Shown here one piece after another: positions 1-15,922 of a stretch of DNA of 64,000 bases. The stretch covers positions 2,322,627-2,386,626 of the forward strand of contig OZ253943.1 of assembly GCA_965267325.1 (NCBI GenBank). The letters are read 5' to 3'. This stretch comes from Hyphococcus sp. (lineage in GTDB: Bacteria; Pseudomonadota; Alphaproteobacteria; Caulobacterales; Parvularculaceae). Under the pieces are notes generated by a model, which had not been told where the DNA came from, searched no databases, and worked only from the letters and a program-made list of their open reading frames with translations. The stretch's first letter is position 1, and each line of letters opens with the position of its first letter. The position numbers were made by a program, and so were the translations under genes.

Positions 1-368
1 GTTTTTCTTTTCTGGCTTGGAATGAGATCAAGAAACAACATCCGCATGCGTAAGGGATCGACGCCCGGATCGATCGCGCGTTCGAGGTCGCAAATCCAGC
101 CGAGAAACGCCTGTTTTCCATGCCGGGTGAGCTCATAGGCCACCGCTTTACGACGCCCGACGGTGGCGTTTTTTGGGGCAAGATAACCCCGCGCGTGAAG
201 CCTCTTTACCGCGGGATAAATCGCGCCTGCGCTGCCGCTCCAGAACCGCGAGGGCGCGGCCGCGACGCTTTGCTTCAATTCGTAGGCGGTAATTGGGGCA
301 AATCTCGCAACCTTCGCCAACAAAAGGCCCTCTAACTCGGTGAGCTCGGCATCCGTCGAATTCGTCAT
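1..368 (-). CDS. PadR-family transcriptional regulator, 3' end runs off the window (not in the ORF track)
   Basis: Manual translation from ATG at 368: MTNSTDAELTELEGLLLAKVARFAPITAYELKQ...FWSGSAGAIYPAVKRLHARGYL...VAYELTRHGKQAFLGW. This fits a PadR winged helix (S-G-x-IYP-x-L/V-x-RL). Divergent from the protease gene. Confidence 0.85.
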   Translation of the reverse strand, partial: MTNSTDAELTELEGLLLAKVARFAPITAYELKQSVAAAPSRFWSGSAGAIYPAVKRLHARGYLAPKNATVGRRKAVAYELTRHGKQAFLGWICDLERAIDPGVDPLRMRMLFLDLIPSQKRK

Positions 369-433
369 AAAAAATTCTTCACAAGGCTCGTCTTCTTATG
401 TTACTAATCGTAACAAATCAACGTGGTGGTGAC

Positions 434-1315
434 ATGAAACTCCTGATTCTGCCGATAATAGCTGTGTTTGCAGCGGGCTGCACGTCAACAAGAGGCGCCG
501 AGATTACGGAGGCGCCGATGGATGTCTCAAGCGGAAGGCCGATGGTTGAAATCATGATCAACGGCCAAGGGCCGTTTCAGTTCATTGTCGACACTGGAAT
601 GCCCAAAGGCGGAATGATCAATGCTGCAATTATTGAAGCGCTTAACGTAGAATCTGTCGGTCAACGCGAAATCAACAGCCCGCTTGGCGGCGCGCCGGTC
701 TCTTCTGACCTTTATCAAGTCGATACGATCAGCATTGGCGGCGCCGAGAGCCATGATATCACGCTCGATCACATCAAGGGCGAAGTTACCGATAGATTGG
801 GCGCCGGCGTTATTGGGCCGTCTTTGTTTGACGAGGGTCTTGTGACCCTCGATTTTCAGCGAAATGTTATGCGCATTGGCGGCGAGGCGCCAAAGGATGT
901 CACGTGGATCGGCTTCGGCGAAAGCGCGCCGATACTCGACGGCATTGTCACGATCGAGAGTGTTGAGATGCCGGCGCATATCGACACTGGCGCGCCGCAT
1001 GCCCTTACTTTGCCGGAAAGCTACGCCGACGAGCTTCAGCTTGATGGTCCGCTAGAGGTGATCGGTCGCGGGCGCACTATCGACAAGGAATTTGAGATCA
1101 CCCGCGCGCCGCTGGATACTGTTGCGACCATTGGCGATGCCTCTATTCCGCTTAAGAACGTCATGTTTGGCCCGTTTCCTGTCGTAAATTTGGGGACGGG
1201 CGGACTCCGCGGGCTTGTCCTGACCATAGACTGGCCGAACGAACGGTACGCAATAGTTGGCGAAGCAATGCCGGCGGAACTGCAATCGCGACAAGTCAGG
1301 CGGCAGCCAGATTAG
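434..1315 (+). CDS. Lipoprotein aspartyl protease with two retropepsin-like domains
   Basis: Signal peptide with lipobox MKLLILPIIAVFAAGC; two DTG motifs (FIVDTG, AHIDTG); GVIG and NLG flap-like motifs. Confidence 0.85.
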   Translation: MKLLILPIIAVFAAGCTSTRGAEITEAPMDVSSGRPMVEIMINGQGPFQFIVDTGMPKGGMINAAIIEALNVESVGQREINSPLGGAPVSSDLYQVDTISIGGAESHDITLDHIKGEVTDRLGAGVIGPSLFDEGLVTLDFQRNVMRIGGEAPKDVTWIGFGESAPILDGIVTIESVEMPAHIDTGAPHALTLPESYADELQLDGPLEVIGRGRTIDKEFEITRAPLDTVATIGDASIPLKNVMFGPFPVVNLGTGGLRGLVLTIDWPNERYAIVGEAMPAELQSRQVRRQPD

Positions 1316-1336
1316 TTGTCTGACATCTTTTTTTTT

Positions 1337-1367
1337 GAATGTCTGTTTTGGGCCGAAACGGACATTC
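1337..1367. repeat. Palindromic repeat family, copy 1
   Basis: GAATGTCTGTTTTGGGCCGAAACGGACATTC; arms gaatgtc/gacattc and gttt/aaac. Confidence 0.75.
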
Positions 1368-1437
1368 GGTATGCCGGCGCCTGATGTGCAAACCGCGCAA
1401 AGAGGGAGCACATGGAAGAAAATGGTTGCGCCGCATG

Positions 1438-2349
1438 TCAGCCGAGCGCGTCGACTTCCTGTGCGAGCGAAGCGTAGTCGGCGTGCCCCGTTGCCGGCGC
1501 GACCTGCTCCGCCCAGAGTGAATCGATTTGCTCGGCGATGGTTTGCGGGATTTGACTTGCGTCGCTGCTTTTCGCCTGGACTTTTGTTGAATCGCTGTTG
1601 GCGGGGATACCGAGCCTTTGGTCCATCACAGCGCAAACCATTGCATCGTCGAACTTGTCCTTTTGGGCGTGCATAAATTCGCGGCTGGTATGCTCGTCAA
1701 CCAAATCCAACAATGCCGGCGTCAGCTCTATTTCAAGAAACGCAGCCAATCGATTGATCATCGCGCGCCGGTCGCGCGCAGCATTGCGATAGGTCGCCAA
1801 CAGCGTGTCCGCCTCGCCGCGTCGCCGCCACCAGCTAAGCAGGTGCGTAAAGTAATCGCAGCCCCCGGGACCGCCTGACATCCAAAGGGGAAAGAAATCT
1901 TCAAGCGATACCGATCCGCTTTCCAAATGCCAGCCGTCGAAGAAGCGATAGAAAGAAACGTAGGTTTCCTTCGGATCGCGCAACGTCACCACATATCTCA
2001 TTCCCGCCGGCAAACGTTCATATTCGCGATGAGATTTGAAACCGCGCGGGGTCGCGCGTTGCGGCGCCGTCAAATCGAGATCGAGCATCAACGCCGTGTC
2101 CTCCCAGGGGACGACGCGGCTGATATCGTCGAAATCCATGTCGCCGGCGCCGGTCGCTTCGCCCATGCGCAGTTGGTGAAACATCTGCTGCATCAAGGTG
2201 GTGCCGCTTTTCGCCCATGGGGTGATGAAAACATCGCCGGGGCGCGCGGAAAGCGCCTGGTAATTGACCGGCTCGACCTCATTGAGGGCGGTCATGTTGA
2301 GGACCAATTCTTCTACGTTGCGCGCACGGCGCCCCAATCCCTTCGACAT
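1438..2349 (-). CDS. PAPS-dependent sulfotransferase (Sulfotransfer_1 type)
   Basis: 5'-PSB loop TPWAKSGTTL, FKSH, 3'-PB motif VTLRDPKETYVS. Confidence 0.85.
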   Translation of the reverse strand: MSKGLGRRARNVEELVLNMTALNEVEPVNYQALSARPGDVFITPWAKSGTTLMQQMFHQLRMGEATGAGDMDFDDISRVVPWEDTALMLDLDLTAPQRATPRGFKSHREYERLPAGMRYVVTLRDPKETYVSFYRFFDGWHLESGSVSLEDFFPLWMSGGPGGCDYFTHLLSWWRRRGEADTLLATYRNAARDRRAMINRLAAFLEIELTPALLDLVDEHTSREFMHAQKDKFDDAMVCAVMDQRLGIPANSDSTKVQAKSSDASQIPQTIAEQIDSLWAEQVAPATGHADYASLAQEVDALG

Positions 2350-2488
2350 AATCGATTGCCCCCTTCCAAGCCTTTGCCAATTGCCCAGCTGCGATCATGG
2401 CGCGCTGCTGCAACAAAAGCCAGGGATTCGCGCATAGGCGCAATTATCCGCCTGGGAACATGGACGCTTTGCCGGAGGTCTCTTTCGT

Positions 2489-3106
2489 CTAATTGGTCAC
2501 GCGCATCATTTTAAATGCAGAGAACAATAATGCGCCGCCGGCGGCCGTATTTATGCTTTTGATCGCCCAGGCTTTGACGCCGCTTCTGGAGACAGTCGCT
2601 CCCAAAAAAGAGTAGATCGAATAGGCTGCGAAATCGAGAGCGAGCGTAGTCGCCCCCATAATCAAAAACTGCAATGCGATAGGCCCGTTCACATTCAGGA
2701 ATTGGGGCAATATGGCTGCAAAATATAAAAGCGCTTTGGGGTTTGCAAATTCCACCACAAAGCCTTTGGTGAATAAGAGCCGCGCGCTTTCACGGCGCCC
2801 TTGTTTCACTTTGAAACCACCGGTTTTGCTGAAGATCGCCGACAGACCGAGATAGCAGAGATACGCTATGCCCACCCATTTGATGACAGTGAACAGGGCA
2901 TTTGACGCGATGATGATAGAGGCAATGCCTGTCGCCGATAGCGCGAAATAAATAGCATTAGCGCTGGCGATGCCGAAGACGCCGAATTGCGCCCGGCGCA
3001 CGCCATTGCCCGAACCCTGGGCGGCGATCGTGATGGCTGCGGGTCCTGGCGAAAAGACGACAACGGCTGTGGTCGCCAAAAACAGGAAGTAAGTGCTAAG
3101 TTCCAT
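2489..3106 (-). CDS. LysE/RhtB family amino-acid exporter
   Basis: FSPGP, G-x-x-YL-x-YLG and F-x-NPKALLYF motifs; 205 aa, hydrophobic. Confidence 0.9.
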   Translation of the reverse strand: MELSTYFLFLATTAVVVFSPGPAAITIAAQGSGNGVRRAQFGVFGIASANAIYFALSATGIASIIIASNALFTVIKWVGIAYLCYLGLSAIFSKTGGFKVKQGRRESARLLFTKGFVVEFANPKALLYFAAILPQFLNVNGPIALQFLIMGATTLALDFAAYSIYSFLGATVSRSGVKAWAIKSINTAAGGALLFSAFKMMRVTN

Positions 3107-3252
3107 CAGCCGCTCCTCGTGCTGCGGCTAAAACTATAAGAATGGCCCTGGCGCAGGCGCCACCAGCAAGATGTCTGGCGCGCCGGAAAGAATCCGGCGA
3201 GCGTGACAGAATGTCGGTCTATCAGTGACGGTAAAACAGCGGCGGTCGAACA

Positions 3253-3696
3253 ATGAGCAAAGCCCATCTGGACCCGAAGGACCTTTTGCTGCTCAGGGCG
3301 CTGAAGAAAAACGCGCGCGCCAGCCTGGTCTCTCTCGCCCGGGAAATCGACCTGTCGCGCAGCGCCACCCATGATCGCATCGCCAAGCTGGAAGAAGCCG
3401 GCGTCATTGCGGGCTACACCATCGAAGTCGATGACGAGGCCCTGCCGACCATCCGCGCCTTTATGACCATCCAGTTTGAGATTGGCGCCGGCCAGACCGA
3501 TGTTGTGACCGCCATCTCTGAACTTCCGGGTGTTGAATCGGCCAATTGCGTCACCGGGGATATTGATATGATTGTTTATTGCGAATGCGACTCGATGAGC
3601 GCGCTTGCCCATATTCGCGATGCAATCGCGCAATTTGACGGCGTGACCCATGTGAGCACGCGGCAAATCCTGTCGACATCAAGGTCAAAGAGCTAG
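3253..3696 (+). CDS. Lrp/AsnC family regulator, divergent from the LysE gene
   Basis: LD-x-x-D-x-x-LL...NAR...LA...LS...RI-x-KLEE-x-GVI-x-GY; C-terminal VTGDID motif. Confidence 0.9.
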   Translation: MSKAHLDPKDLLLLRALKKNARASLVSLAREIDLSRSATHDRIAKLEEAGVIAGYTIEVDDEALPTIRAFMTIQFEIGAGQTDVVTAISELPGVESANCVTGDIDMIVYCECDSMSALAHIRDAIAQFDGVTHVSTRQILSTSRSKS

Positions 3697-3750
3697 CTTC
3701 GGCCGGTCGCGCTGCATTCGGCTAAAGCCATCATTTCGCATTGACGTTGC

Positions 3751-3782
3751 GAGTGGCCGGTTTGGGCCAAGAGTGGTCATTG
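3751..3782. repeat. Palindromic repeat family, copy 2 (a more decayed copy lies at about 3705-3736)
   Basis: GAGTGGCCGGTTTGGGCCAAGAGTGGTCATTG; same TTTGGGCC core and GGTCATT right arm. Confidence 0.55.
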
Positions 3783-3789
3783 CGCCCGA

Positions 3790-4113
3790 CTAATCGTCGT
3801 TTGAGGATTGCTCGACGATTGTACCTAGTAGTTTGCCGGAATCTGGATCGTACAATCGCAACTCAATGCCATTTTCTGTTTCGACACGAACGATGATTTC
3901 CAAACGTGTCGAGTAGTCGATAGTTGCCGGAAGTTTCTCATCGTTCAAATCAATGAGATAAGGTGCGCGATTTGTGTTGGCGAATAGCCACAAAATTGCT
4001 GCGCCCCAGAAAATAACTATCACGAACAGGGAAATGTTGGAAAACCAGTTTTTTCCTCGCTCATGTAATTTGACATGATATACTCGATCATCATCCATTG
4101 TTTTCCCCTCCAA
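3790..4113 (-). CDS. Small single-TM hypothetical protein
   Basis: ORF with one hydrophobic helix (ISLFVIVIFWGAAILWLF); AT-richer than its neighbours. Confidence 0.6.
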   Translation of the reverse strand: MEGKTMDDDRVYHVKLHERGKNWFSNISLFVIVIFWGAAILWLFANTNRAPYLIDLNDEKLPATIDYSTRLEIIVRVETENGIELRLYDPDSGKLLGTIVEQSSNDD

Positions 4114-4157
4114 TTCGCTGACACCGCATTGATAACATCAACTTAGCATTTACAATG

Positions 4158-4187
4158 CAATGTCCAATGTTCGCCAATAGACGACAC
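4158..4187. repeat. Palindromic repeat family, copy 3 (degenerate)
   Basis: CAATGTCCAATGTTCGCCAATAGACGACAC; AATGTCC left arm retained. Confidence 0.4.
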
Positions 4188-4209
4188 AAGAAAGGCGTGC
4201 GGCACGAAC

Positions 4210-4545
4210 CTATAGCCCGTCGACTTCAAATGGTTTTGGTCCACCCGGTTTTGGGCTCTCTCCCAAGGCAATTGCTTGGTACTCGCAGTTGGTTCGATCA
4301 TAGAAAACAGTGATGTGAACCCGCTCGTCAGGGGCCGGTGACCGAAATTTCACTGCCCATGAATTGTGTTCTTCTACGATACTCGCTGGGTAATCCGTGT
4401 AGTCTTGATAGTCGTCAAAATTTTCCCGTGCTATTTCGCGCGCGGATTCTATCAGTATTTCCGGATGGCATTTATCGATGTGCCTGGCGGTCGAGCCGCA
4501 ACCTTGTATCAAAACGATCATTCCCAACCCGAAAAGAACACGCAT
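4210..4545 (-). CDS. Small hypothetical lipoprotein
   Basis: ATG at 4545 gives MRVLFGLGMIVLIQGC (lipobox-like) followed by a ~95-aa soluble domain. Confidence 0.6.
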   Translation of the reverse strand: MRVLFGLGMIVLIQGCGSTARHIDKCHPEILIESAREIARENFDDYQDYTDYPASIVEEHNSWAVKFRSPAPDERVHITVFYDRTNCEYQAIALGESPKPGGPKPFEVDGL

Positions 4546-4628
4546 TTTGGCCAACACAATGTTTTGAATCAAAAATCCAAGTCTACAAAGTAAATCATCA
4601 TGAGTGTTACATCGCAGAAGGAATTGTT

Positions 4629-4660
4629 CAATGTCCGTTATTGGCCAAAATCGGTCATTC
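4629..4660. repeat. Palindromic repeat family, copy 4
   Basis: CAATGTCCGTTATTGGCCAAAATCGGTCATTC. Confidence 0.7.
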
Positions 4661-4724
4661 GATACGCCGTTTCGAATCACCTTAACCTGTGACGTTCGAC
4701 AGACCCCTTAAGTCGATGTGTACC

Positions 4725-4764
4725 GCGCCGCCTCTTGCGTTCCCCTTCCACTCAGAGGCGGCGC
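4725..4764. other. Perfect 11-bp GC-rich stem-loop (terminator or sRNA part)
   Basis: GCGCCGCCTCT-N18-AGAGGCGGCGC; loop TGCGTTCCCCTTCCACTC. Confidence 0.5.
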
Positions 4765-4940
4765 ACTTATTTGACTATAATTGGTCCTCCAAAGCATCCC
4801 AGGCCTCAGCCAATTGTTGAGCGTGTGGGCGGTCAGCCGCCTACGAGCGCATTCTGGAACCAATGGACGGGGAAGATTGGTGTAACCTCGAAAGAGGTGT
4901 AGGCTTTGCCGGTTGCCTGTTACGTCGGGGAGGATCAAAC

Positions 4941-5498
4941 ATGGCGCTCAATCTCAAAACGCTAGTCCTGGCCGCAATTGGATCGATTGGCGCCGGCGCT
5001 GCCGCTCATGCGGAGCCGATCGTACGAAATGCATCGCTCTTTGAAACACTTTCCATAGAAGGCGTGAGCCTCGCCACAACACCGAGAGAGGCGTTCGATA
5101 CTCTTTACGCAAACGGATACACCGCCGGCGACATCACGGCCTACGAAGATTGGGATCATGGCTCAATCAACATGGTGCGCGGCGAATATGGAGGACCGGA
5201 AGGGTACTCCTCTATCAACCTCGGGCGCGCGGACGGCCACCTTGCATTGATCTCTCAGTCGCTCAATAGCCGCGGCATCGATGCGGCTTCAGAAATCGGC
5301 GCCGTGCAGTCGCATTTCGGCATTGCCGACGATGAGCCGGACTGCCGGATGAACGGGGCGGGCACGAGCGGCAGTTGCCAGGTGCGCGATTCAGAAGATC
5401 GCGCGGCGGCGAAAATGATTTTCACGATGACGGCGCAATCGACGATGATCTTGCGTTCCGTCTCGAGACCTCAAGAGCTTGTCAAAACGCTTGAGTGA
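4941..5498 (+). CDS. Secreted hypothetical protein
   Basis: RBS GGGGAGGA; signal peptide MALNLKTLVLAAIGSIGAGAAAHA; paired Cys (DCRM...SCQV). Confidence 0.75.
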   Translation: MALNLKTLVLAAIGSIGAGAAAHAEPIVRNASLFETLSIEGVSLATTPREAFDTLYANGYTAGDITAYEDWDHGSINMVRGEYGGPEGYSSINLGRADGHLALISQSLNSRGIDAASEIGAVQSHFGIADDEPDCRMNGAGTSGSCQVRDSEDRAAAKMIFTMTAQSTMILRSVSRPQELVKTLE

Positions 5499-5590
5499 CG
5501 GGTGCTCTATGCTCGCTGGTTTTCAGAAGACCGGCGCTATCATAATCTCCGAATGATCGGCGGGCGCTCAGGCTGGTCGGGGATTTCATT

Positions 5591-5620
5591 TAATTAGTCC
5601 TTCGCCGGAAGCGGGCATTC
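5591..5620. repeat. Palindromic repeat family, copy 5 (right arm only well preserved)
   Basis: ...CGCCGGAAGCGGGCATTC matches the right-arm consensus AAGCGGACATTC. Confidence 0.4.
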
Positions 5621-5676
5621 GCGCGTTACCGCCAGAACGCGAGCGGTGAGTAAAAACCGTACAGGTTCAAGCGATG

Positions 5677-6039
5677 TCAGGCAAAAAAGAGCCGAATTAA
5701 GTTGAAAAAGAGAGCCCCGGCATATAGCGCGGTGAATAACGTCAGCACCCAATAAATTGCGAACACAGGAAAGTTCTTTTTGACAAAAATTGGGTTTTCC
5801 GCGATGTCTTTTTTAATTCGCGCAGGGTTGCGTCGTTCTTTGCCTGCCAAAATTCTTACATAGTATTTGCCTAGGTGTAGCCGCAGGTCAGCATGCTCAA
5901 CATCTGTTGCGCTTCGGATAAGGGCCGCCTCAATAGATTTTTGCTGCTCTTCGGAAAGCGCCGCTTTTGCATCAGGATTAACTTCTTCCCAGAACCAATT
6001 CAGACGCTGATTGGGAATTGTAATTTCGCTATTGGACAT
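5677..6039 (-). CDS. Hypothetical protein with a C-terminal TM helix
   Basis: G-rich RBS before ATG 6039; 120-aa AT-rich ORF; motif DLRLHLGKYYVRILAGKERR. Confidence 0.7.
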   Translation of the reverse strand: MSNSEITIPNQRLNWFWEEVNPDAKAALSEEQQKSIEAALIRSATDVEHADLRLHLGKYYVRILAGKERRNPARIKKDIAENPIFVKKNFPVFAIYWVLTLFTALYAGALFFNLIRLFFA

Positions 6040-6301
6040 TTCCCCCCCCTTAAAACAGATACGAGCACATGATCCATGGATTGCCGCGACGCCGCCGACG
6101 ACCCAGTTGTTTCCATAGCGCACTGGTATGAAGGCTGACCCTATTTTTTACCGATAATTTGAAAGAACATTTCGCGATCATATCTATCAACTGACAACGA
6201 GTTTTTTTGGATCGTCCGGGATTTGGCGAAAAATTGATATGTGTACTTTTCTGAGAATCGCCGGTTGCCGGAATTACAGTGACATTAGCTACTCCGGATG
6301 C

Positions 6302-6333
6302 GGATGACCCTTTGGACCCAATAAGGGACATCC
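6302..6333. repeat. Palindromic repeat family, copy 6
   Basis: GGATGACCCTTTGGACCCAATAAGGGACATCC; arms ggatg/catcc and ccctt/aaggg. Confidence 0.55.
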
Positions 6334-6399
6334 AGGTTGCCCGCGCCCTTAATAGTCCGCGAGAAGAGATGTTAGCTCGCGCTCGAAGCAAGCCGTTCT

Positions 6400-7278
6400 T
6401 CAACTTTCGCCGCTCTTCTCATCCAATATGCCCGTTGCGGCGATTTCCTTTGCGAACGCATGGAATCCTCTAGGGCTGTTTCCGGTCGCAAGCTTGATGT
6501 CATCACTGAGGCTGGACGCATGCCCCTCCCGAAAGTAACGCTCGAGATCGAGCATCCTGTCAGCGAGTTCCTCAGGCATGCCGCCGCCGACCATCGCTCC
6601 TTTCAGGTCGGCTGGAGAAAGGCTGACGTGATTGATTTGGCGGCCCAGCACTGTTGATAGCTCTGCGGCCAGTTGATCGTAGGAAAACGCTTCGGGGCCC
6701 GTCAGCGTGTATGCTTTGCCATTATGGTCATCGGTCGTTAGCGCGCTGACAGCAACGGCAGCAATATCTCGAACGTCCACATGGCCGATCGACCCGTTTT
6801 CGCTTGCGCTGTAAAAAGCGTTTTCGGCTGCAATGGTCGGGCTCATAAACGTTACGACATTTTGCATGAAGCTGTTTGGGCGAAGAAATGTCCATGACAG
6901 GCCGCTCGACTCGATGGCCCTTTCCACGGGTCGGTGAATTTTCGCCAGGCTGTATGATTCATCCTCCGCGCCCATTACCGATTGCTTGACGATGTAGCGG
7001 ACGCCGCTCGCTCTAGCTGCCTCGACTGCGTTTAGCTCGAGTTTTGTTTGGTTCAAATCATTCGGGCCAAGGAGAAACAGTCTGTCGCAACCGTTAAAGG
7101 CCTTCGCCAACGTCTCCGGTTCGTTGTAGTCGATGACGACCGCATCGATTCCTTCCGCGTTCGCGTCGTCCGCCTTTTGCTTTGAATTGTAAGCAGCCCG
7201 AAATTGCACGTTCTTTGACTGCAGCTGTCTCAACACTTCGCTGCCGACGGTGCCGCCGGCTCCTGTAATGCAAATCAT
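6400..7278 (-). CDS. NmrA-like / atypical SDR NAD(P)-binding oxidoreductase
   Basis: N-terminal ITGAGGTVG, LRPNSFMQN, GHVDVRDIA and YTLTGPE motifs. Confidence 0.9.
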   Translation of the reverse strand: MICITGAGGTVGSEVLRQLQSKNVQFRAAYNSKQKADDANAEGIDAVVIDYNEPETLAKAFNGCDRLFLLGPNDLNQTKLELNAVEAARASGVRYIVKQSVMGAEDESYSLAKIHRPVERAIESSGLSWTFLRPNSFMQNVVTFMSPTIAAENAFYSASENGSIGHVDVRDIAAVAVSALTTDDHNGKAYTLTGPEAFSYDQLAAELSTVLGRQINHVSLSPADLKGAMVGGGMPEELADRMLDLERYFREGHASSLSDDIKLATGNSPRGFHAFAKEIAATGILDEKSGES

Positions 7279-7317
7279 GGCGTAGATGACTCCTTCATTG
7301 ATCTCGTTTTCCGCGTC

Positions 7318-7794
7318 TCAGATCGCGATGATGAAAAAAATGCACGCAACAATTGAAACGACAGTTCGCACATGGTTCCACGGCGTCCAATTGCGCAGAT
7401 ACCGGTCCCACATTTCAGCCCCGCTCGCAGAACTTGCGTCGACGGCTTTCAGCTTGTTGTTCAACGGCACGTTGAAGAACACCGTCACCAAAAACATTCC
7501 GACAAAGTACGTTGCGCCGCCAATCGCCATCCACAAAGCTCGGTCGGCCGACAAATCCGAAACGGCGATCAGGACCGAAATAACTGACGCCACCGACGTT
7601 CCGAAAAACAGAGGCATAAATGCCGAACGCAAAATGACGTCATTGATGGATTGCATCGCGCCAATCCCGGCCGCGGTGTCAATTTTTGCAAGAGACGACA
7701 TGACGAATGCTGAAAACGTGAAATACGCGCCCGCCATGACGCCGCATCCGACGGCGCAAAACCAAAGCAATGCCTGAATTGCCGTATCTGTCAT
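7318..7794 (-). CDS. DUF1772 / anthrone oxygenase-like membrane protein
   Basis: FTFSAFVMSSL, MQSIN, NVPLNNKL and W-x-x-WNHVRT motifs. Confidence 0.85.
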   Translation of the reverse strand: MTDTAIQALLWFCAVGCGVMAGAYFTFSAFVMSSLAKIDTAAGIGAMQSINDVILRSAFMPLFFGTSVASVISVLIAVSDLSADRALWMAIGGATYFVGMFLVTVFFNVPLNNKLKAVDASSASGAEMWDRYLRNWTPWNHVRTVVSIVACIFFIIAI

Positions 7795-8086
7795 CGGGTC
7801 CGCTCCTTCTTCAGCTCGAAAGCGCGCCGCTTCTCAATGCGCGCTTGATAGGGATGACTTATGAGAGCGACTGCGGACCGTCCATGTTCGCGCTATTCAA
7901 AATCATACGCGACCGTCTCAAACCGACAGATTCAAGCGATCCATGATCGTTTCGAAGGTAGTGGGGCGTGTGTATTTGCCACAAAGGGCGTAATAAGTGC
8001 GCCACAAAGCGCGCGCATGGTGACGAATTCCCTCGCATCGGTGTTGTTTGCGATCTAAAAATTTTTCCAGGTCGTAAAAGGTGAGA

Positions 8087-9043
8087 ATGGACGCGATTAC
8101 AAGTCTCCTGGAAGGAACGCGGGCGCGCGGCGCTTTTGCGCTGAAGTGCGTGATGAGCGAGCCTTGGGGGCTGCGCATATTGGCGCAATCGCCTGCGACT
8201 TTGCTTGTCGCGATCCAAAAGGATTTCTGGATCATCCCGGACAATGGAGAACCGCTTCACATCAAACCCGGCGATGTGGCGGTTACTCGTGCGCCCGACC
8301 ATTACAGCGTAGTGGCGACGCCCGACACGACGCCGGGAATTTTCATTCATCCGGGCCAGGATTGCCGCGACCGGGAAGGAAACTCCCTCCTGGAAGAGCT
8401 GACGCACGGCGTTCGCACTTGGGGAAACGACGCCAGGGGCGACTGCGTATTTATCGTCGGCGCTTATGAACATCTGAGCGCGGTCAGCGACAAGCTAACA
8501 AAGGCGATCCCCCCGGTATTGACGCTTAGTTCGAGCGACTGGGAATCTCCATTGGTTCCGTTTCTTGTCGACGAAGTGGTCAAGGATGAAGAAGGCCAGG
8601 CCGCCGTACTCGACCGGCTGCTGGATCTGTTGCTGACATCCGTTTTGAAGTCATGGATCGCCAAACGCGACGCAACGCAACCTCGCCAATGGCAATCGCA
8701 AGGCGACCCAATTGTCGAGCGCACCCTTCGCTTAATGCAAGAAGACCCTGGCCGCCCCTGGACAATTCAAATGCTCGCATCCGAGGCAAATACGTCACGC
8801 GCATCGCTTGCACGCCGCTTCAGCGAAATTGTCGGCGAACCGCCAATGTCTTTTTTGAAAAATTGGCGAATGGCGCTCGCCGCGGATTTGTTGACGCGGC
8901 CCGAGGAAACAGTTGGAACTGTTGCAGAGAAAATCGGCTATCGCAGCCCGTTCGCGTTCAGCGCCGCGTTCAAAAGACTGCGCGGCGTCAGCCCGTATGA
9001 ACATCGGGCGCTGGCGAAAGAGGGCGCGCTCGAAGTGATCTAG
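8087..9043 (+). CDS. AraC-family regulator (cupin N-terminus)
   Basis: PWTIQMLA...SRASLARRF...GEPPM-x-FL-x-x-WRM and GY-x-S-x-FAFS-x-AFKR-x-x-G double HTH; divergent from the DUF1772/NmrA genes. Confidence 0.9.
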   Translation: MDAITSLLEGTRARGAFALKCVMSEPWGLRILAQSPATLLVAIQKDFWIIPDNGEPLHIKPGDVAVTRAPDHYSVVATPDTTPGIFIHPGQDCRDREGNSLLEELTHGVRTWGNDARGDCVFIVGAYEHLSAVSDKLTKAIPPVLTLSSSDWESPLVPFLVDEVVKDEEGQAAVLDRLLDLLLTSVLKSWIAKRDATQPRQWQSQGDPIVERTLRLMQEDPGRPWTIQMLASEANTSRASLARRFSEIVGEPPMSFLKNWRMALAADLLTRPEETVGTVAEKIGYRSPFAFSAAFKRLRGVSPYEHRALAKEGALEVI

Positions 9044-9243
9044 ATCATTAATCGAGCCGGCGAGTGTCCGCCATGCACCCGAAGAATCAACAAATTCGTA
9101 TTTGCTTTCTTGCTTTGATGCAGAGCCTCCGGAATTGGCGCGTGATTGGCGGATCGTGCGAGAATGCCCTATGCTCTTTTGAGTAACGTCACACACCCTT
9201 TGGCATTGACCGGCCTCGACGACGCCATGTCTGAGTTGAAGCG

Positions 9244-10284
9244 ATGAATCCGAGAGAGAATATGGTGGTGAATTCTTGCATTCGCTTCGCGCTCGCGGGT
9301 CTCATGCTTTCTTTCGGAGGCTGCGCATCACAAACCGTAGCGCAAGCAGCCGCGCCAGATTGTTTGGCCGAAGAACTGTTTTCGTCCGCCAGCGCCGACT
9401 CCGTCTCCGGCAATTGGGACCGAGCAATAGAAACCCTGGAGCTGTCGGTTTCGCCGCCCCAGCTTGAATGCGCTTCGGTGGAACACCAGATTCGCGCAGA
9501 AATCTTGCTTGGCGATCTCATCTGGAAGCGCGGCGACTTCGAGAAGGGCGAAGCGATCCTTTTGTCGGCGCGCCGTCGCGCCGAGGAGACGCGCTCGTCT
9601 GGCCTTTTGGCTGAAGCCCAAGCATCTATCGCCGAGATCGCATTCGCGCGGGCGCATCTCAAGCGTTCTATTGAACCAGGTGCATCACGCGCCGCCTATC
9701 AATTGGCGCTCGAAAATGCTCGTGACGCCGGCCGGGAGGATCTTGTCGCCGGCGCGCTTGGTCGGCTGGGCGTGATCGACGAAAGGGCGGGCGATTTGCA
9801 AGCGGCGGAAGACCTTTACCGGCAAGCAATGGCGATTGCAGAGAATGCCGGCGCCGTTGACAAGTTGCACCTGCCTTACGCGCATTTGGGCGGTTTAAGC
9901 GAAGATCGCGGCGAGACGGAAATGGCGCGTCATTACTTTGCATTGGCGCTGGATGTCGCCGCCCAATCGTCGAAGCGCGAACATATGGTGTTTGCGTTGA
10001 TCAATCAGGCGCGGTTCGCGCAGCGCGCAGAACTGATTTCAGTTGATGAGGCGCTCAGTCAAATTAACCGCGCCCATGAAATTGCGATGGATACAGGCAA
10101 CAAGATCGCTCTGTGCCTGACCCATCTAAACTTAGCTTCCATGCATGCAAGGAACGGCGATACGGAAACCGCCATGAAAAATGCGCAAGCGGCCATGGAT
10201 ATGGCGCAGGCGTACGATTTTGTCGCCTACGAGGATTTTGCAAATTTGGTTATGCGCCGCATCGAAAGCGCAGATTCCAGATAA
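9244..10284 (+). CDS. TPR-repeat protein, probable lipoprotein
   Basis: LMLSFGGC lipobox-like motif; repeated A-x-x-x-LG...G-x-x-x-x-A-x-x-x-Y-x-x-AL helical repeats. Confidence 0.75.
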   Translation: MNPRENMVVNSCIRFALAGLMLSFGGCASQTVAQAAAPDCLAEELFSSASADSVSGNWDRAIETLELSVSPPQLECASVEHQIRAEILLGDLIWKRGDFEKGEAILLSARRRAEETRSSGLLAEAQASIAEIAFARAHLKRSIEPGASRAAYQLALENARDAGREDLVAGALGRLGVIDERAGDLQAAEDLYRQAMAIAENAGAVDKLHLPYAHLGGLSEDRGETEMARHYFALALDVAAQSSKREHMVFALINQARFAQRAELISVDEALSQINRAHEIAMDTGNKIALCLTHLNLASMHARNGDTETAMKNAQAAMDMAQAYDFVAYEDFANLVMRRIESADSR

Positions 10285-10544
10285 TGAGACGGTATTTTAT
10301 CTGGGTTATTGTCCCGCAAGTTGTTTTATTGGCGCCGCTCATAGCAACGCAGCACACGGACGCGGTCTATTGGGAGCCGGGCGACTTTGTTGTTGCAGCC
10401 GCCCTTTTAGCGACGGCGGGATTGGGAGCGGCAATTGCAAGCGAAAAATCAAACCGAACGATGCTCCGAATAATGTTCGGTTTGGTCATTATTGCAGCTG
10501 CGGCGCTAATTTGGATGCAGTTGGCGGTCGGTATTTTCGAGTGA
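10284..10544 (+). CDS. Small 3-TM hypothetical membrane protein
   Basis: TAATG stop/start overlap with the TPR gene; hydrophobic 86 aa. Confidence 0.7.
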   Translation: MRRYFIWVIVPQVVLLAPLIATQHTDAVYWEPGDFVVAAALLATAGLGAAIASEKSNRTMLRIMFGLVIIAAAALIWMQLAVGIFE

Positions 10545-10594
10545 ACACCGCCGACGACCAGGCCCCTGTCACCTGTGTTGGGCCGATCGTGACG

Positions 10595-10933
10595 TTAGTG
10601 TTCGCTGGTCTTCAGGAACTCAACACCGCTCTCATATTTGTTTTGCCAGGCGAGTCGCACGCGGGTCGGCGCCGCATAACCATCGATTACCAGCGTGAAC
10701 TCGTCCGGAAGCGCTTCATCGGTTGGTGTTGATAGTGCGGCCCCATTTGCGCTGATGTCCTGGACGAGACATTTTCTCTCAGCGCCTTCGTCCGTGAAGA
10801 TCAACCCAAACATATTCGTTGGCACACGCTCGACTGTCCGCAGCGGAGGCGGGACGAGGTCGAAGTCCTGAGGCGGCAGCAGCTTCGCAGCCTGCAGACG
10901 ATCCTCAATGTTGTTCAGTATCATTTTTCCCAT
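10595..10933 (-). CDS. Stand-alone PilZ-domain protein (putative c-di-GMP binder)
   Basis: R-x-x-x-R-like motif (RTVER), CLVQDISANGAAL (D-x-S-x-x-G) and GVEF. Confidence 0.8.
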   Translation of the reverse strand: MGKMILNNIEDRLQAAKLLPPQDFDLVPPPLRTVERVPTNMFGLIFTDEGAERKCLVQDISANGAALSTPTDEALPDEFTLVIDGYAAPTRVRLAWQNKYESGVEFLKTSEH

Positions 10934-11037
10934 AACGCGGCTAAATTACCGCAACACCCTGAACATTCCATTAAGGTTAAGGAAATGGCCTTGAAGCGGG
11001 TTGCTCCGTCAGTGGTTAAATACAAGGCGCGCTGGTT

Positions 11038-12198
11038 TTAATTGTTGTGGGTCGAGTGAAATAGGCGATCTCCCAAGCGACCACTTAAGACGGCGCCGAC
11101 CACCGTTCCGCTTACAAAAAATCGGTAAACTAGAACTCCCAACATTGTCGTCAAAATCGTTACTATCGCGAACTTTGCCCAGACGAAAATAGGCGCTTCG
11201 GCGATCAACGCCTGAAGAAATACAACAATGGGCAGGTGAATCAAATAGAGCCAGTATGATGCGTCAGCGATATACCGAACTTTCGGGTTTTCGATATTCA
11301 AGAACTGCCGGCCGAATGAAAGCGCCAGATAAACAAACAACGACGATGCAATTGCTCCTGCGAAACTGAGCTGCAAACGTTGGGTGGGCGCCAGCTCGGT
11401 CGGCGGAAATTCGTATTCTGGCAACGAATAATAGTAGAAACCAAACACAGCGGTTGCAGCAACGATTGCCTTTGTTCGGTTTGCGTCAATCCGATCCAGC
11501 GCCGCCTCGTTGCCAAATAAGAGCCATCCTAGTGCAAAAAAGACACCGAAATATCCAAACGGCCACAACTCGGGAATAATTCCGTCCGGTGACGGAATAG
11601 GGTGCCCAGCAGAAATGAGCGCCGGTGCAATCAATGCTGGCATTAAAATGAACATCCATCCGCTTGACACCAGTGCGTTGAGCCGGTTAACGATTTTGCG
11701 ATTGCGCAGGTTATGGAGAAGCGCTGCGACGCCACAGAAAAACAAAAGATAGTATAGAAACCAAAGGTGCAGTGTACCAACTTCGCTCAGGCTGCCGGAT
11801 TGCTTGGCCCCTTGTTCCTGTAAATATTGGAGAAGCGGCGGCGTTTCGTTCAGGTAGTTTAGGGCGAACAGCAATACTCCGAATGAGGCAACGGCGAGTA
11901 TCGGCCAGAAAATGATGAAGGGAAGAAAAAGGCGGGAAACTCTATTTTTGAGAAACTGCGTTGTTCCGCGCCGATCAATTATCAGCCTCGAAAAATATCC
12001 GGACACGAAAAAAAAGAGTGGCATTCGAAAAGAGTGCAGAAACACCGCAGCAAAATTTAGGATAGCCGACGAGCCCTGATCGCGGACAAACCAGAAATCC
12101 TGAATTGGCGACGCATAAGCGAGCATGCCATGAAAAGCGATACCCAAAAGCATCGCGCCCGCCCGCAAATGATCCATATAATGTAGGCGGTTGATCAT
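11038..12198 (-). CDS. Acyltransferase family 3 (OpgC/MdoC-like)
   Basis: R-x-HYMDHLRA, H-x-FRMPLFFFVSGYF, HLWFLYYL and ASYWLYLIHLP motifs; about 10 TM helices. Confidence 0.88.
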   Translation of the reverse strand: MINRLHYMDHLRAGAMLLGIAFHGMLAYASPIQDFWFVRDQGSSAILNFAAVFLHSFRMPLFFFVSGYFSRLIIDRRGTTQFLKNRVSRLFLPFIIFWPILAVASFGVLLFALNYLNETPPLLQYLQEQGAKQSGSLSEVGTLHLWFLYYLLFFCGVAALLHNLRNRKIVNRLNALVSSGWMFILMPALIAPALISAGHPIPSPDGIIPELWPFGYFGVFFALGWLLFGNEAALDRIDANRTKAIVAATAVFGFYYYSLPEYEFPPTELAPTQRLQLSFAGAIASSLFVYLALSFGRQFLNIENPKVRYIADASYWLYLIHLPIVVFLQALIAEAPIFVWAKFAIVTILTTMLGVLVYRFFVSGTVVGAVLSGRLGDRLFHSTHNN

Positions 12199-12291
12199 CA
12201 ACAATTTACTGCGCAAGCTACCGGTAGGTATTTTTAACGCACAAGCGGATTGGCGCAACCGGATCGAATTTCAAGATGCCGGAATTCTCGC

Positions 12292-12361
12292 AAGTTTCCG
12301 TTTTTGGCCAGAAGCCGTTGTCTAATCCTGAATGTCCGCTTTGGGCAGAAAATCGGCATCG
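12292..12361. repeat. Palindromic repeat family, tandem copies 7a and 7b
   Basis: AAGTTTCCGTTTTTGGCCAGAAGCCGTTGTC (12292-12322) and GAATGTCCGCTTTGGGCAGAAAATCGGCATCG (12330-12361). Confidence 0.6.
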
Positions 12362-12400
12362 ACAAATTGCGCGACCGACTACGTGTTTGCGAATGGCTGA

Positions 12401-14125
12401 CTATTCAGCTGCAGTCTGGAATAAGATCATTACCTTGTCCGTTTCGTCTGCTGTCAGAAACCTAGAAAGCTCCGCTCGGCATTCGTCCGGTCGGACCTCA
12501 AGCTGATCAACCTCATCGCGCCATGTGTATCGCTTTGCAGGTGCTAAAGCCCCAGCGTCGCGCGCAAGCGCGTCTGCTTTGACCCATGAATTTAAGCGTC
12601 GCGGGATTCTGGCTCGTACTTCTCGAGCAGTCGTAGCGCTTACAACAAAAATTTCGTCCGTGTTTCGCATTTTAAACTTATAGTGAAGAAAAATACTCTG
12701 CTCATCTTCATCGCCTGTCATTCGACAAACTAGGTCAATTTCGTCAATCTCTGAATATTCGGCCTCAATGACTTCTGTCGATAGATAGTTTCGATATGTA
12801 ATGCCGTCTTCTGTTATCATTTCAAAATCTGCGCGATCAGCAATAAGGCAAACGATCGCAATACCGGCGAACGCAATCGTGATGTTTAGAGTTAAACGAA
12901 ATATCTTTCGAGCGCCGTGCCTTAAATAGGCTGCCGGGTCAAAATCTTCGCCCGGCTTGAGGTCGCCGCGTCGAATGTCAACCGCAATTTGCCGGCGAAG
13001 CAATTGCGCAGGGCTGTCACCGCGCATGCTCTGCTGCGCATTTGTCGCAAATGATAGAACAGCCAATTTCTCAGAGAATAAAGGCGCGGCCGTCGCCAAG
13101 AGGCAATACGCCGCAAATGCTGTGATAAATACAAATACTTCAGTACCGCCAGGGCCGTCATTGTAAATGTACCAGCCGTCTTGAGGCGTTCGAATCGGCT
13201 CGAACAACGACGATGCGAGACCATTGTCGCCCACAAAAAATAGGAATGGTATTAGAAGTAGGAATCCGAAAGGCCAGACAAACACAATCCAGCGCACGCT
13301 GGACGTGTTGGTGCTTTCTGCAAAGTCCTCTACGCTGGTCGCATATGTCTCGATAGCCTCGACTTCGTCGACTGATAGCTGTCGATCGAAGTCACCGCGC
13401 CGGCCACGCCTGAACTTGACCCACAAACCGGCGAGAACACCAAAAATCGGGTAGAGAACAGCAAGAACGAGGATTGGCACCGCCAATTCCAGAAGTTGCC
13501 ATTGATCCAAGCGCTCGATAACTCGAACGAATATTTCCCATCCATAAAACTGATCATCAATCAATGCGGCGCGCACGGTGACCGCGTAAATGGTTCCAAT
13601 TAGGAGCGCTGCAATGAGAATCGTGAGATATGTTATTATACTTATCGTTTGACGCAGATAGGCCTTAACGGTGTCCCAAAACCCTTCGGCGGACTGCGTA
13701 ACAACATCGGTTTCCCCATCGCTACCCGGATTCAAGTGTTCGTTCGCATTCCCGCCAAGCCCAAGAAACGCCAGCAACGCCGGGACCGCAAAGGCGAAAA
13801 TCCAAAGCTTTTCGCCGCCTGCGCGCACCGCCTCGAATGCGAGATAGCCGTTCACGCTGATCACCGCTATCGGTGCGATTGCCAAAATCACCATGCCAAT
13901 TCGTGTCAACGCGCCTTGGCCTTGGTGTTGCGACGGCGATGTTAAAGCGCGGCGCCGCCGCAGATGCGCACAGACCAAGAGCCCCAGCGCCGTAAGGGTG
14001 CAATGAACGACGAACGCTTCAGCAGTGACGGCCGTCGGGCTCCCTGGCCAGCGCACACCGCCAATCACGGCGACGATTGCGCCAATTAAACCAGCAATAC
14101 CGATCCGCAGAGCGACACGCCCCAT
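12401..14125 (-). CDS. Large multi-TM hypothetical protein
   Basis: 574-aa ORF with about 9-10 hydrophobic segments and a soluble C-terminal domain; AT-richer codon use. Confidence 0.75.
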   Translation of the reverse strand: MGRVALRIGIAGLIGAIVAVIGGVRWPGSPTAVTAEAFVVHCTLTALGLLVCAHLRRRRALTSPSQHQGQGALTRIGMVILAIAPIAVISVNGYLAFEAVRAGGEKLWIFAFAVPALLAFLGLGGNANEHLNPGSDGETDVVTQSAEGFWDTVKAYLRQTISIITYLTILIAALLIGTIYAVTVRAALIDDQFYGWEIFVRVIERLDQWQLLELAVPILVLAVLYPIFGVLAGLWVKFRRGRRGDFDRQLSVDEVEAIETYATSVEDFAESTNTSSVRWIVFVWPFGFLLLIPFLFFVGDNGLASSLFEPIRTPQDGWYIYNDGPGGTEVFVFITAFAAYCLLATAAPLFSEKLAVLSFATNAQQSMRGDSPAQLLRRQIAVDIRRGDLKPGEDFDPAAYLRHGARKIFRLTLNITIAFAGIAIVCLIADRADFEMITEDGITYRNYLSTEVIEAEYSEIDEIDLVCRMTGDEDEQSIFLHYKFKMRNTDEIFVVSATTAREVRARIPRRLNSWVKADALARDAGALAPAKRYTWRDEVDQLEVRPDECRAELSRFLTADETDKVMILFQTAAE

Positions 14126-14439
14126 ATCAAAGGGGCTCGGATTTTCCCCGTCATGGTTGCGTTTTGGCTCATCTAAATGATCACGCGTATCTATTTTCGA
14201 TCGCCCCTAAATTGCCCGTAAATTACCTTTTCCCAAAGGTCCGGCACTGCGATCATTCCGTCAATGCCCTGGCTAAACTGAACTCTTTCACGATTGCGAA
14301 CAGTATATCCACCATGGGTGAGAGCGCGTCGCTTGGGCGAGCAACCCTCTTGAATGGAGAAAATGACCGTTAATCGCCAAAAGCGAACTCATCACGCGCG
14401 CGATCTGCAAGCCTTTGGAAAGTATCGGGGACCGCGCCC

Positions 14440-15741: not shown

Positions 15742-15922
15742 GAAGTAACGCCGCCCCTACTACGCAAACTGTGCCATTGTGCAGTGCACAATATAGGCCG
15801 TTTTTCCTAATTTTCCAGCGACTATGAGACGGTTCTTCCTCGCAAATCAACGATTTCTCACAGAAATGTAACAGTTTTTGCGAGATTTCCCCAGGATCGG
15901 AACCCGTCGCTCGGAGGCGGGA

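Follow-up and report, generated by a model that had tools for sequence, protein, structure and literature searches.

We show that short palindromic repeats in the genome of Hyphococcus sp. (GenBank assembly GCA_965267325.1, referred to as genome G000) are decayed relics without sign of current activity, and that these fossils mark joints between single genes or small groups of genes in accessory islands. The repeats were pointed out in a 64-kb stretch of the chromosome (contig OZ253943.1, C1:2322627-2386626; "the window" hereafter) by an earlier note, which was made from the sequence alone and described a family of palindromes separating accessory genes like cassette boundaries. They are probably decayed members of an intergenic hairpin family resembling repetitive extragenic palindromic (REP) elements and their hairpin-forming doublets (REPINs), and would act as module boundaries and portable homology. 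The family itself, apparently undescribed, is widespread in soil Proteobacteria and abundant in soil Alphaproteobacteria. In well-preserved arrays of such genomes, alignments indicate that single-gene units have been reshuffled between genomes with breaks in the repeats, the core genome being collinear.

Results

Repeat copies in Hyphococcus sp. lie in low-GC islands and are eroding

The G000 chromosome is a single contig of 3.418 Mb with a guanine-plus-cytosine (GC) content of 57.8%. Its copy set was defined as the nhmmer matches at E<=0.1 (n=30), a looser set at E<=1 comprising 48 matches; taking nhmmer and the covariance model together, the genome has about 30-48 copies. The set of 30 is confined to six low-GC islands, together 3.8% of the chromosome, located at ~1.066, 1.20-1.22, 1.85-1.87, 1.95-1.96, 2.317-2.337 (the region of the window) and 3.12-3.13 Mb. 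GC content around the copies is 50.1%, compared with 57.8±2.6% for the genome, the median gap between copies is 2.1 kb as opposed to the ~78 kb expected, and their orientation is mixed or ambiguous. The earlier note had named an even spread, with copies at the ends of core genes, as the result that would speak against recombination or insertion sites; since 30 of 30 copies are bound to six accessory islands and none stands at a core-gene end, that objection does not apply.

The densest of these regions, an array of orphan genes in which open reading frames (ORFs) and repeats alternate, lies inside island F (C1:3116183-3149674; 33.4 kb, 46.5% GC), which is integrated in tRNA-Arg(CCG). The island has perfect 52-bp direct repeats (3116210-3116261 and 3149623-3149674) and a tyrosine integrase gene at one end (3148214-3149461), and its cargo includes tRNA-Gln(TTG) (3128941-3129014) and genes of the DUF1353 and DUF900 families. 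Three large ORFs (1060, 542 and 490 aa) also lie within 3141620-3147925. An insertion sequence (IS) of ~1.2 kb occurs in G000 in four copies (C1 134701-135904, 1201934-1203024, 1722278-1723484 and 1960079-1961281), which are 100% identical and therefore recently active; two of them lie inside the repeat-bearing islands B and D, and the annotated copy in island D has an IS3-family layout (HTH_Tnp_1 + rve).

Erosion of the repeats is evident at several levels. Across the 24 G000 copies that were aligned for a covariance model with a 14-bp stem, pairing amounts to 71.9%, compared with 71.8% when partners are shuffled, and neither compensatory change nor covariation was found among them. A single near-perfect copy is present in G000, against 36-407 in other carrier genomes (a carrier being a genome that holds the hairpin family; codes in G denote genomes and codes in L denote loci of the exact-pattern scan given below), and the G000 doublets are decayed as well, with fold z-scores of -0.2 to -3.9. 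The copies in G000 are eroding copies of a palindromic consensus and not hairpins kept by selection; in this genome nothing would seem to maintain them, and their erosion is presumably ongoing.

Repeats delimit duplicated single-gene units

Two single-gene units of the window have paralogs in other islands of G000 (Table 1). For the unit at 3784-4174, homology sets in directly behind the 3749-3784 repeat and runs to the centre of the 4156-4191 repeat, whose left half belongs to the duplicated unit; no homologues of its orphan gene (3790-4098) were found outside its own cluster. A further paralogous unit (1847600-1847966 versus 3133518-3133884, 91% identity) starts at a repeat centre. Doublets of ~70 bp recur in different G000 islands at ~90% identity, and the doublet architecture with the TAATCCTG spacer seen in the window is found again at G000 positions 1198570, 1210563, 1215264, 3126134, 3131094 and 3132015. 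The orphan at 4941-5498 was considered as another gene tied to the repeats and rejected, its homologues lying in three unrelated contexts without hairpins.

Island E, to which the first part of the window belongs, holds further nhmmer copies upstream of the window at G000 2321857, 2321345 and 2316736. The first 14.4 kb of the window are absent from the 25 same-genus genomes sampled, across which only positions 14440-15760, which take in the polyhydroxybutyrate (PHB) depolymerase gene, are conserved (71-78% identity). With the island missing from the nearest genomes and the neighbouring core gene this diverged in them, gain and loss of units were studied only in another genus.

A wider family with three hairpin types

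At its best the repeat is an 11+6+11 palindrome around the core ATGTCCGC-N12-GCGGACAT, with perfect dyad symmetry and constant spacing (TGTCCGC-N12-GCGGACA). A scan for the exact pattern ATGTCCGYTTT-N6-AAARCGGACAT, with one genome per species, gave at least 120 loci, mostly from Alphaproteobacteria, among them Pseudolabrys, Xanthobacteraceae and other Hyphomicrobiales, Rhizobium, Sphingomonas, Sphingomicrobium, Henriciella and Rhizomicrobium. Other matches came from Lysobacter soli, Dyella dinghuensis, Erwinia aeris and some beta- and gammaproteobacterial metagenome-assembled genomes (MAGs), and a few matching MAG contigs are labelled Acidobacteriota, Actinomycetota or Udaeobacter. Near-perfect copies number in the hundreds in Pseudolabrys, Xanthobacteraceae and other Hyphomicrobiales, and are fewer in Sphingomonas, Lysobacter, Dyella and others. 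The richest genomes hold 407, 272, 261, 243, 184, 167, 153 and 108 of them, G037 (a complete 3.43-Mb chromosome) holds 36 and L. soli 26.

The cultured Gammaproteobacteria Erwinia aeris ACCC 02193 (L096) and Dyella dinghuensis DHOA06 (L085) have 10 and 13 near-perfect 26-bp cores, respectively, which is unexpected for a family centred on Hyphomicrobiales; both strains may be of use as experimental hosts. On one Acidobacteriota MAG contig (L069) all copies are found at one contig end, at 3.1-6.3 kb, and on an Actinomycetota MAG contig (L065) all are found in the last 2 kb of 110 kb; these contig-end copies stem from a chimera of assembly or binning, or else from the transfer of a mini-array.

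Searches of the literature with the sequence strings of the family returned full-text matches to unrelated primers only. Rfam searches of the window island and the carrier loci yielded no family that fits, the matches being a chance small nucleolar RNA (snoRNA), tRNA and ar35. The snoRNA match, to the nematode ceN86 at window positions 164-270 (+), scores 35.3 bits against a gathering score of 40 and is taken as chance.

The hairpins fall into three types with a common stem and distinct loops, K (GGCAC), G (GGGGGT) and D (GACCC). Composites of these types always follow the order K>G>D, in full or in part, with a period of 45 bp. The doublets of G000 and G037 are of the D-K type, and G037 in addition has inverted D/D doublets, which form a perfect 31-bp hairpin (-34.4 kcal/mol, z -11).

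Arrays and unit shuffling in well-preserved carriers

In the carrier genomes, composites or inverted doublets occupy nearly every spacer of lower-GC, gene-variable regions, neighbouring clusters being co-oriented in 166 of 172 cases and spaced by a median of 1060 bp. Hairpins of G038 are absent from a core stretch of 60% GC and then fill >140 kb of 52-57%-GC DNA in a single orientation, with one exception. In the complete chromosome of G055, orientation is organised in local blocks with no clean ori/ter switch; a replichore-wide strand bias, as in insertion into the lagging-strand template, was rejected because orientation there changes locally within arrays.

The genes between carrier hairpins are accessory singletons (ABC substrate-binding proteins, outer-membrane proteins, lipocalins, methyltransferases, Crp and major facilitator superfamily transporters), and gene orientation within units is ~65% consistent. 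Composites between tandem gene pairs are co-oriented with the genes in 55 cases and opposed to them in 20, while divergent spacers hold 34 of 136 composites and convergent spacers 27; the first hairpin often lies 8-70 nt past a stop codon. Many carriers (L008, L023, L026, L054, L067, L082, L110, L116) also have ~1.1-kb paralogous units that are delimited by hairpins and share 64-68% nucleotide identity in alignments running from repeat to repeat. We take these units to belong to the PF04392 ABC substrate-binding family, an assignment that Pfam confirmed only for one unit elsewhere (L072).

Comparison between related genomes gives a view of how such arrays change. A 14-kb array segment of G038 found matches in only 15 of 40 same-genus genomes, in the form of single units at 82-94% identity; in G054, G094, G062 and G081 the matched units are scattered over different contigs, with alignments that end in repeat clusters. 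G038 and G054 are the bins MFD05521.bin.1.214 and MFD06714.bin.1.101, respectively. By comparison, a 14-kb core segment from the same G038 contig, used as a control, is collinear in 41 of 41 genomes and aligns over its full length to G054 at 94%. Units common between genomes in unrelated contexts are 87-96% identical, as exemplified by a 1-kb unit that G050 and G038 have in common at 96% with unrelated neighbours. At junctions of arrays in the "-" orientation, the D hairpin goes with the left unit and the K hairpin with the right unit, the break falling between the two.

Repeat copies in the window

A covariance-model scan of all 64 kb with filters off gave seven window copies at E<0.01 (Table 1). 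The seed of the model held the copies at 1337, 4629 and 12330, which match by construction, and the other four are independent. The earlier note had listed nine copies, of which these seven score, while those at ~3705 and 5591 were matched by neither the covariance model nor nhmmer and do not fold. Of its two tandems, accordingly, 12292/12330 is a real doublet (units 12290-12325 and 12328-12363) and 3705/3751 is not. Its placement of the copies at gene junctions was borne out, all seven being intergenic by both ORF and gene calls, as was its remark that it noticed none in the 14.4-64 kb part, where no significant copy was found (best covariance-model score E=0.55). The consensus it wrote down proved too strict as a pattern: within 3 mismatches it fits only the copy at 4629, and the family is thus degenerate in this window. 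"Hairpins" is an apt word for the consensus but not for most copies, since only those at 1335 and 6300 fold better than shuffled sequence. The orphan genes said to be AT-richer are so in three cases (3790-4098 with 42.7% GC, 4210-4545 with 49.4% and 5677-6039 with 44.9%), but not at 4941-5498 (57.9%).

Read from left to right, with R for a repeat, the island has the layout aspartyl protease, R; sulfotransferase, LysE, AsnC, R; orphan, R; orphan, R; two orphans, R; NmrA-like gene through to acyltransferase, RR; 574-aa orphan; core genome.

Table 1. Coordinates of repeats, units and the accessory island in the window (positions 1-64,000; CM, covariance model)
Feature	Start	End	Strand	Scores and fold	Description and context
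Accessory island E	1	14400			53.5% GC versus 58.7% in the remaining window; extends at least 6 kb upstream of the window
Repeat	1335	1369		CM 39.7 bits, E 6e-10; DNA fold -9.8 kcal/mol, z -5.8 versus shuffles	Best-preserved hairpin, TTGAATGTCTGTTTTGGGCCGAAACGGACATTCGG; in seed; flanked by convergent aspartyl-protease (398-1315 +) and sulfotransferase (1438-2349 -) genes
Repeat	3749	3784		CM 24.6 bits, E 4.5e-5; fold lost	Decayed, GGGCC centre; between AsnC (3253-3696 +) and orphan 3790-4098 (-)
Single-gene unit	3784	4174	-		Orphan 3790-4098 plus upstream region; 89% identical to G000:3119377-3119767 (island F)
Repeat	4156	4191	+	CM 19.8 bits, E 0.0015	Decayed, TTCGCC centre; between orphans 3790-4098 and 4210-4545
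Repeat	4627	4662		CM 44.4 bits, E 1.9e-11; fold z -0.46	Nearest to family consensus; in divergent spacer between orphans 4210-4545 (-) and 4941-5498 (+)
Single-gene unit	5667	6208	-		Orphan 5677-6039; 73% identical to G000:1217993-1218533 (island B); boundaries too diverged to place
Repeat	6300	6335		CM 18.6 bits, E 0.0038; -7.8 kcal/mol, z -3.8	Divergent, hairpin kept; between orphan 5677-6039 (-) and NmrA-like gene 6400-7278 (-)
Doublet	12290	12363	+	CM E 0.0033 and 1.1e-7	GGCC-centre copy, TAATCCTG spacer, second copy; between acyltransferase (11038-12198 -) and 574-aa orphan (12401-14125 -)
Weak candidate relic	14365	14388	+	nhmmer E 0.28, CM E 2.8; not significant alone	At the border of island and core, directly ahead of the conserved PHB depolymerase gene (14440-15741)

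Searches for an associated enzyme and for known site types

No Y1/RAYT transposase (PF01797; RAYT, REP-associated tyrosine transposase) was found in G000, G032, G039, G037 or G038, and among G000 and six carrier genomes the domain is present only in G031 and G036. Integron integrase (IntI, TIGR02249) was not matched above the cut-off in G000, nor in 12 of 13 other carrier genomes. G031, which also has hairpin arrays, carries two full-length IntI genes (C18:1299-2243 and C19:1935-2879; 491 and 485 bits), and within 16 kb of these there are no hairpins and no simple attC-pattern matches. The ten large ORFs in the 140-kb array region of G038 include no recombinase and encode sensors, transferases, transporters and the like. 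A motif scan identified small GIY-YIG-like ORFs in G000 at 168673-169035, 2059736-2060080 and 1128403-1128735, two of them close paralogs, with no repeat copies within 400 bp; the same scan of ~1.3 Mb of carrier loci found none. The Ssn-related motif (SRM) published for Ssn nucleases, HGTCWYN(0-2)YYVSBRHN(0-5)WNVSBRGN(0-2)RNCYNB (PMC11893778), is absent from all 30 G000 copies and has 17 matches elsewhere in the genome.

The earlier note had set the repeats apart from attC and dif sites, and in both respects it was right. The attC R boxes RYYYAAC/GTTRRRY were matched by 0 of 30 G000 copies in a regular-expression search of 60 nt on each side and both strands, in a genome without integron integrase, and the repeats bear no resemblance to the dif core (ATAA-N6-TTAT), the dif-like candidates of G000 being unrelated to them. 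Intrinsic terminators were rejected as an identity for the repeats, since a T-run (>=4 T within 12 nt) follows only 2 of 30 G000 copies and no window copy is terminator-like; of 29 terminator-like sites in window positions 1-15000, none coincides with a copy. The check that the note had proposed, for recombinase genes adjoining the copies, came out negative for Y1/RAYT in G000 and four high-copy genomes, for IntI and for tyrosine recombinases inside arrays. Its broader suggestion, a single-gene cassette or REP-like system with an enzyme encoded elsewhere, holds as far as the sites are concerned, in that copies are island-bound, paralogous units end at or in repeats and units are reshuffled in better-preserved relatives. 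The enzyme part fared less well, no Y1/RAYT, IntI or array tyrosine recombinase being linked to the repeats and the G000 copies being relics.

Discussion

Module exchange at the repeats would most simply proceed via general recombination. Repeats that are 45-135 bp long, near-identical and co-oriented could provide portable homology for the deletion, duplication and swapping of single-gene modules, and after DNA uptake foreign modules may be integrated at them by the general recombination machinery. Exchange based on homology would keep arrays polar and would place breakpoints inside repeats, and ordinary homologous recombination explains the observed shuffling equally as well as a dedicated cassette system. 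The islands of G000 would be the remains of such arrays, which either arrived with the islands or decayed after copying activity was lost.

Several points weigh against this account. Conservation of a 7-9 bp stem between classes, and possibly phyla, speaks for a specific protein that recognises it and not for mere homology, and generalised recombination would predict less site-specificity than is seen in the strict ordering of K>G>D and in the consistent D/K junction. That some genomes contain near-perfect copies by the hundred implies that an active mechanism copies them. The likeness among all repeats prevents base-level placement of breakpoints, the movement of modules within G000 is documented by just two or three paralog pairs, and the G000 islands were delimited by the repeat matches themselves, low GC being their sole independent support.

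A dedicated hairpin-specific enzyme that moves units bracketed by D and K hairpins, making the arrays an integron-like cassette platform, is a rival account that we consider unlikely. It could be a new site-specific recombinase, or else a transposase or nuclease that acts on single strands and is akin to IS200/IS605, RAYT or Ssn enzymes; the window would then contain an array that is dead, its enzyme lost or left behind. Such an enzyme would fit the array polarity (166/172), which in a complete chromosome is local to arrays and not replichore-wide, the ordered K>G>D composite with its reproducible junction between D and the next hairpin, the same stem sequence across distant taxa, the units common at 87-96% between genomes in unrelated contexts, and the G000 breakpoints at palindrome centres. 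It is hard to reconcile with the lack of Y1/RAYT in G000 and four high-copy genomes, one of them a complete chromosome, or with the lack of integron integrase in all but one of the genomes searched, where it is not near hairpins. The SRM motif is likewise missing from all 30 copies, no copies lie next to the small GIY-YIG ORFs of G000, no recombinase is found among the ten large ORFs of the 140-kb array region, and gene orientation within units is only ~65% consistent. Somewhat more doubtful still is the specific form of this idea, in which the ATGTCCGC hairpins are sites of an integron-independent cassette system, D-type 5' and K-type 3', served by an enzyme that is neither Y1/RAYT nor IntI and probably acts on single strands. 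If it were true, carriers would have single-gene cassettes, tens to hundreds of them, lined up in a polar array, and the window would represent a dead one.

Two further readings assign the palindromes a role in which shuffling plays little part. As RNA-level stem-loops in 3' untranslated regions (3'-UTRs), stopping exonucleases or terminating transcription as E. coli REPs do, they would leave the shuffling incidental. This would agree with the intergenic position of all copies, with their co-orientation with tandem gene pairs (55 versus 20), with the first hairpin often lying 8-70 nt after a stop codon and with the transcription of 3'-UTR REPs in Bradyrhizobium, which are of different sequence (Hahn et al. 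2016, PMC5082802). We nevertheless find it improbable, given T-runs after only 2 of 30 copies and no terminator-like copy in the window, 34 of 136 composites in divergent promoter spacers, the absence of compensatory change and of an Rfam family, and a stem whose primary sequence is conserved beyond pairing; confinement to low-GC variable regions would also go unexplained. Alternatively, the palindrome might be the operator of a dimeric DNA-binding protein, nucleoid-associated or island-silencing, with two half-sites of 7-11 bp. Perfect dyad symmetry at constant spacing, conservation at the level of sequence and restriction to low-GC islands are all what such an operator would display. An operator would not typically occur hundreds of times and in ordered triplets whose loops are type-specific, however, the inverted doublets with their perfect 31-bp hairpins point to a single-strand structure, and the decay of the G000 sites means that no selection acts on them there, which together make an operator very improbable.

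Under the preferred interpretation, a REP/REPIN-like family whose copies act as module boundaries, the repeats are an easily recognised marker of flexible regions and acquired islands, even where only fossils survive. If the hairpins are indeed swap joints, they would explain large and fast-changing pools of one-gene units in soil Alphaproteobacteria without integrons or obvious mobile elements. The family would also be one more abundant REP-like family without an associated transposase, like the CGTC class, and as such raises the question of the copying agent. That question is testable in cultivable carriers, for example Lysobacter soli KCTC 22011, Sphingomonas sp. LHG3443-2 or Dyella dinghuensis DHOA06.

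Comparison with known systems

The arrays resemble integrons and clusters of attC sites lacking integron integrases (CALINs) in having co-oriented imperfect palindromes ~1 kb apart with mostly single, often orphan, accessory genes between them, and in having units that occur in different contexts in different genomes. They differ in that a site consists of one or more short hairpins, as opposed to the single bulged hairpin of 60-140 nt of attC, in that genes are just ~65% co-oriented with the sites, and in having neither R boxes nor a linked IntI. The pdif sites of Acinetobacter plasmids are similar in their 28-bp length, their 11+6+11 geometry and their flanking of small accessory modules, whereas the present repeats have no dif core, are direct and not inverted, are chromosomal and are often doubled or tripled. 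The dRS3/NTS kind of repeats, which Ssn nucleases cut (Chenal et al. 2025, PMC11893778), are likewise 20-50-nt hairpins with a (C/T)GTC foot, present in hundreds of clustered copies and with a proposed role in the recombination of incoming DNA; their motif HGTCWY is not matched, as the present family reads TGTC-CG.

Br-REP1 and Br-REP2 are multi-palindrome intergenic repeats from the same bacterial family, with strain-variable abundance like the repeats described here; their sequences are unrelated (CCGGAATCTCGAGATTCCGG etc.), and their description mentions no behaviour as arrays or cassettes (PMC5082802). The CGTC REPs, which dominate in Alphaproteobacteria and sometimes read TGTC, have no associated transposase and carry their tag outside an 8-9-bp stem that starts with A/T and has loops of 4-5 nt (Di Nocera et al. 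2013, PMC3733652). The family sequence was not found in the supplements of that paper, and the published description does not fit: the TGTC/CGTC of the present family lies inside the stem and is followed by CG instead of an A/T stem start, and its consensus GAATGTCCGCTTT...AAAGCGGACATTC has neither a GTAG nor a CGTC tag outside the stem. In S. maltophilia and P. syringae the abundant GTAG REPs occur only in core genome regions (PMC3733652), in contrast to the low-GC variable regions occupied here. The ordered K>G>D composites and the co-oriented arrays at ~1-kb spacing also set the present family apart from REPs, and REPINs differ further in their linked RAYT gene.

With REPs, bacterial interspersed mosaic elements (BIMEs) and REPINs the family has several general features in common. 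It consists of imperfect intergenic palindromes of ~30 bp, present in tens to hundreds of copies as singles, doublets and clusters, with a patchy distribution between related genomes and decay where they are unmaintained. Like the CGTC class it is without an associated transposase, and its inverted doublets, as in REPINs, fold as one long hairpin.

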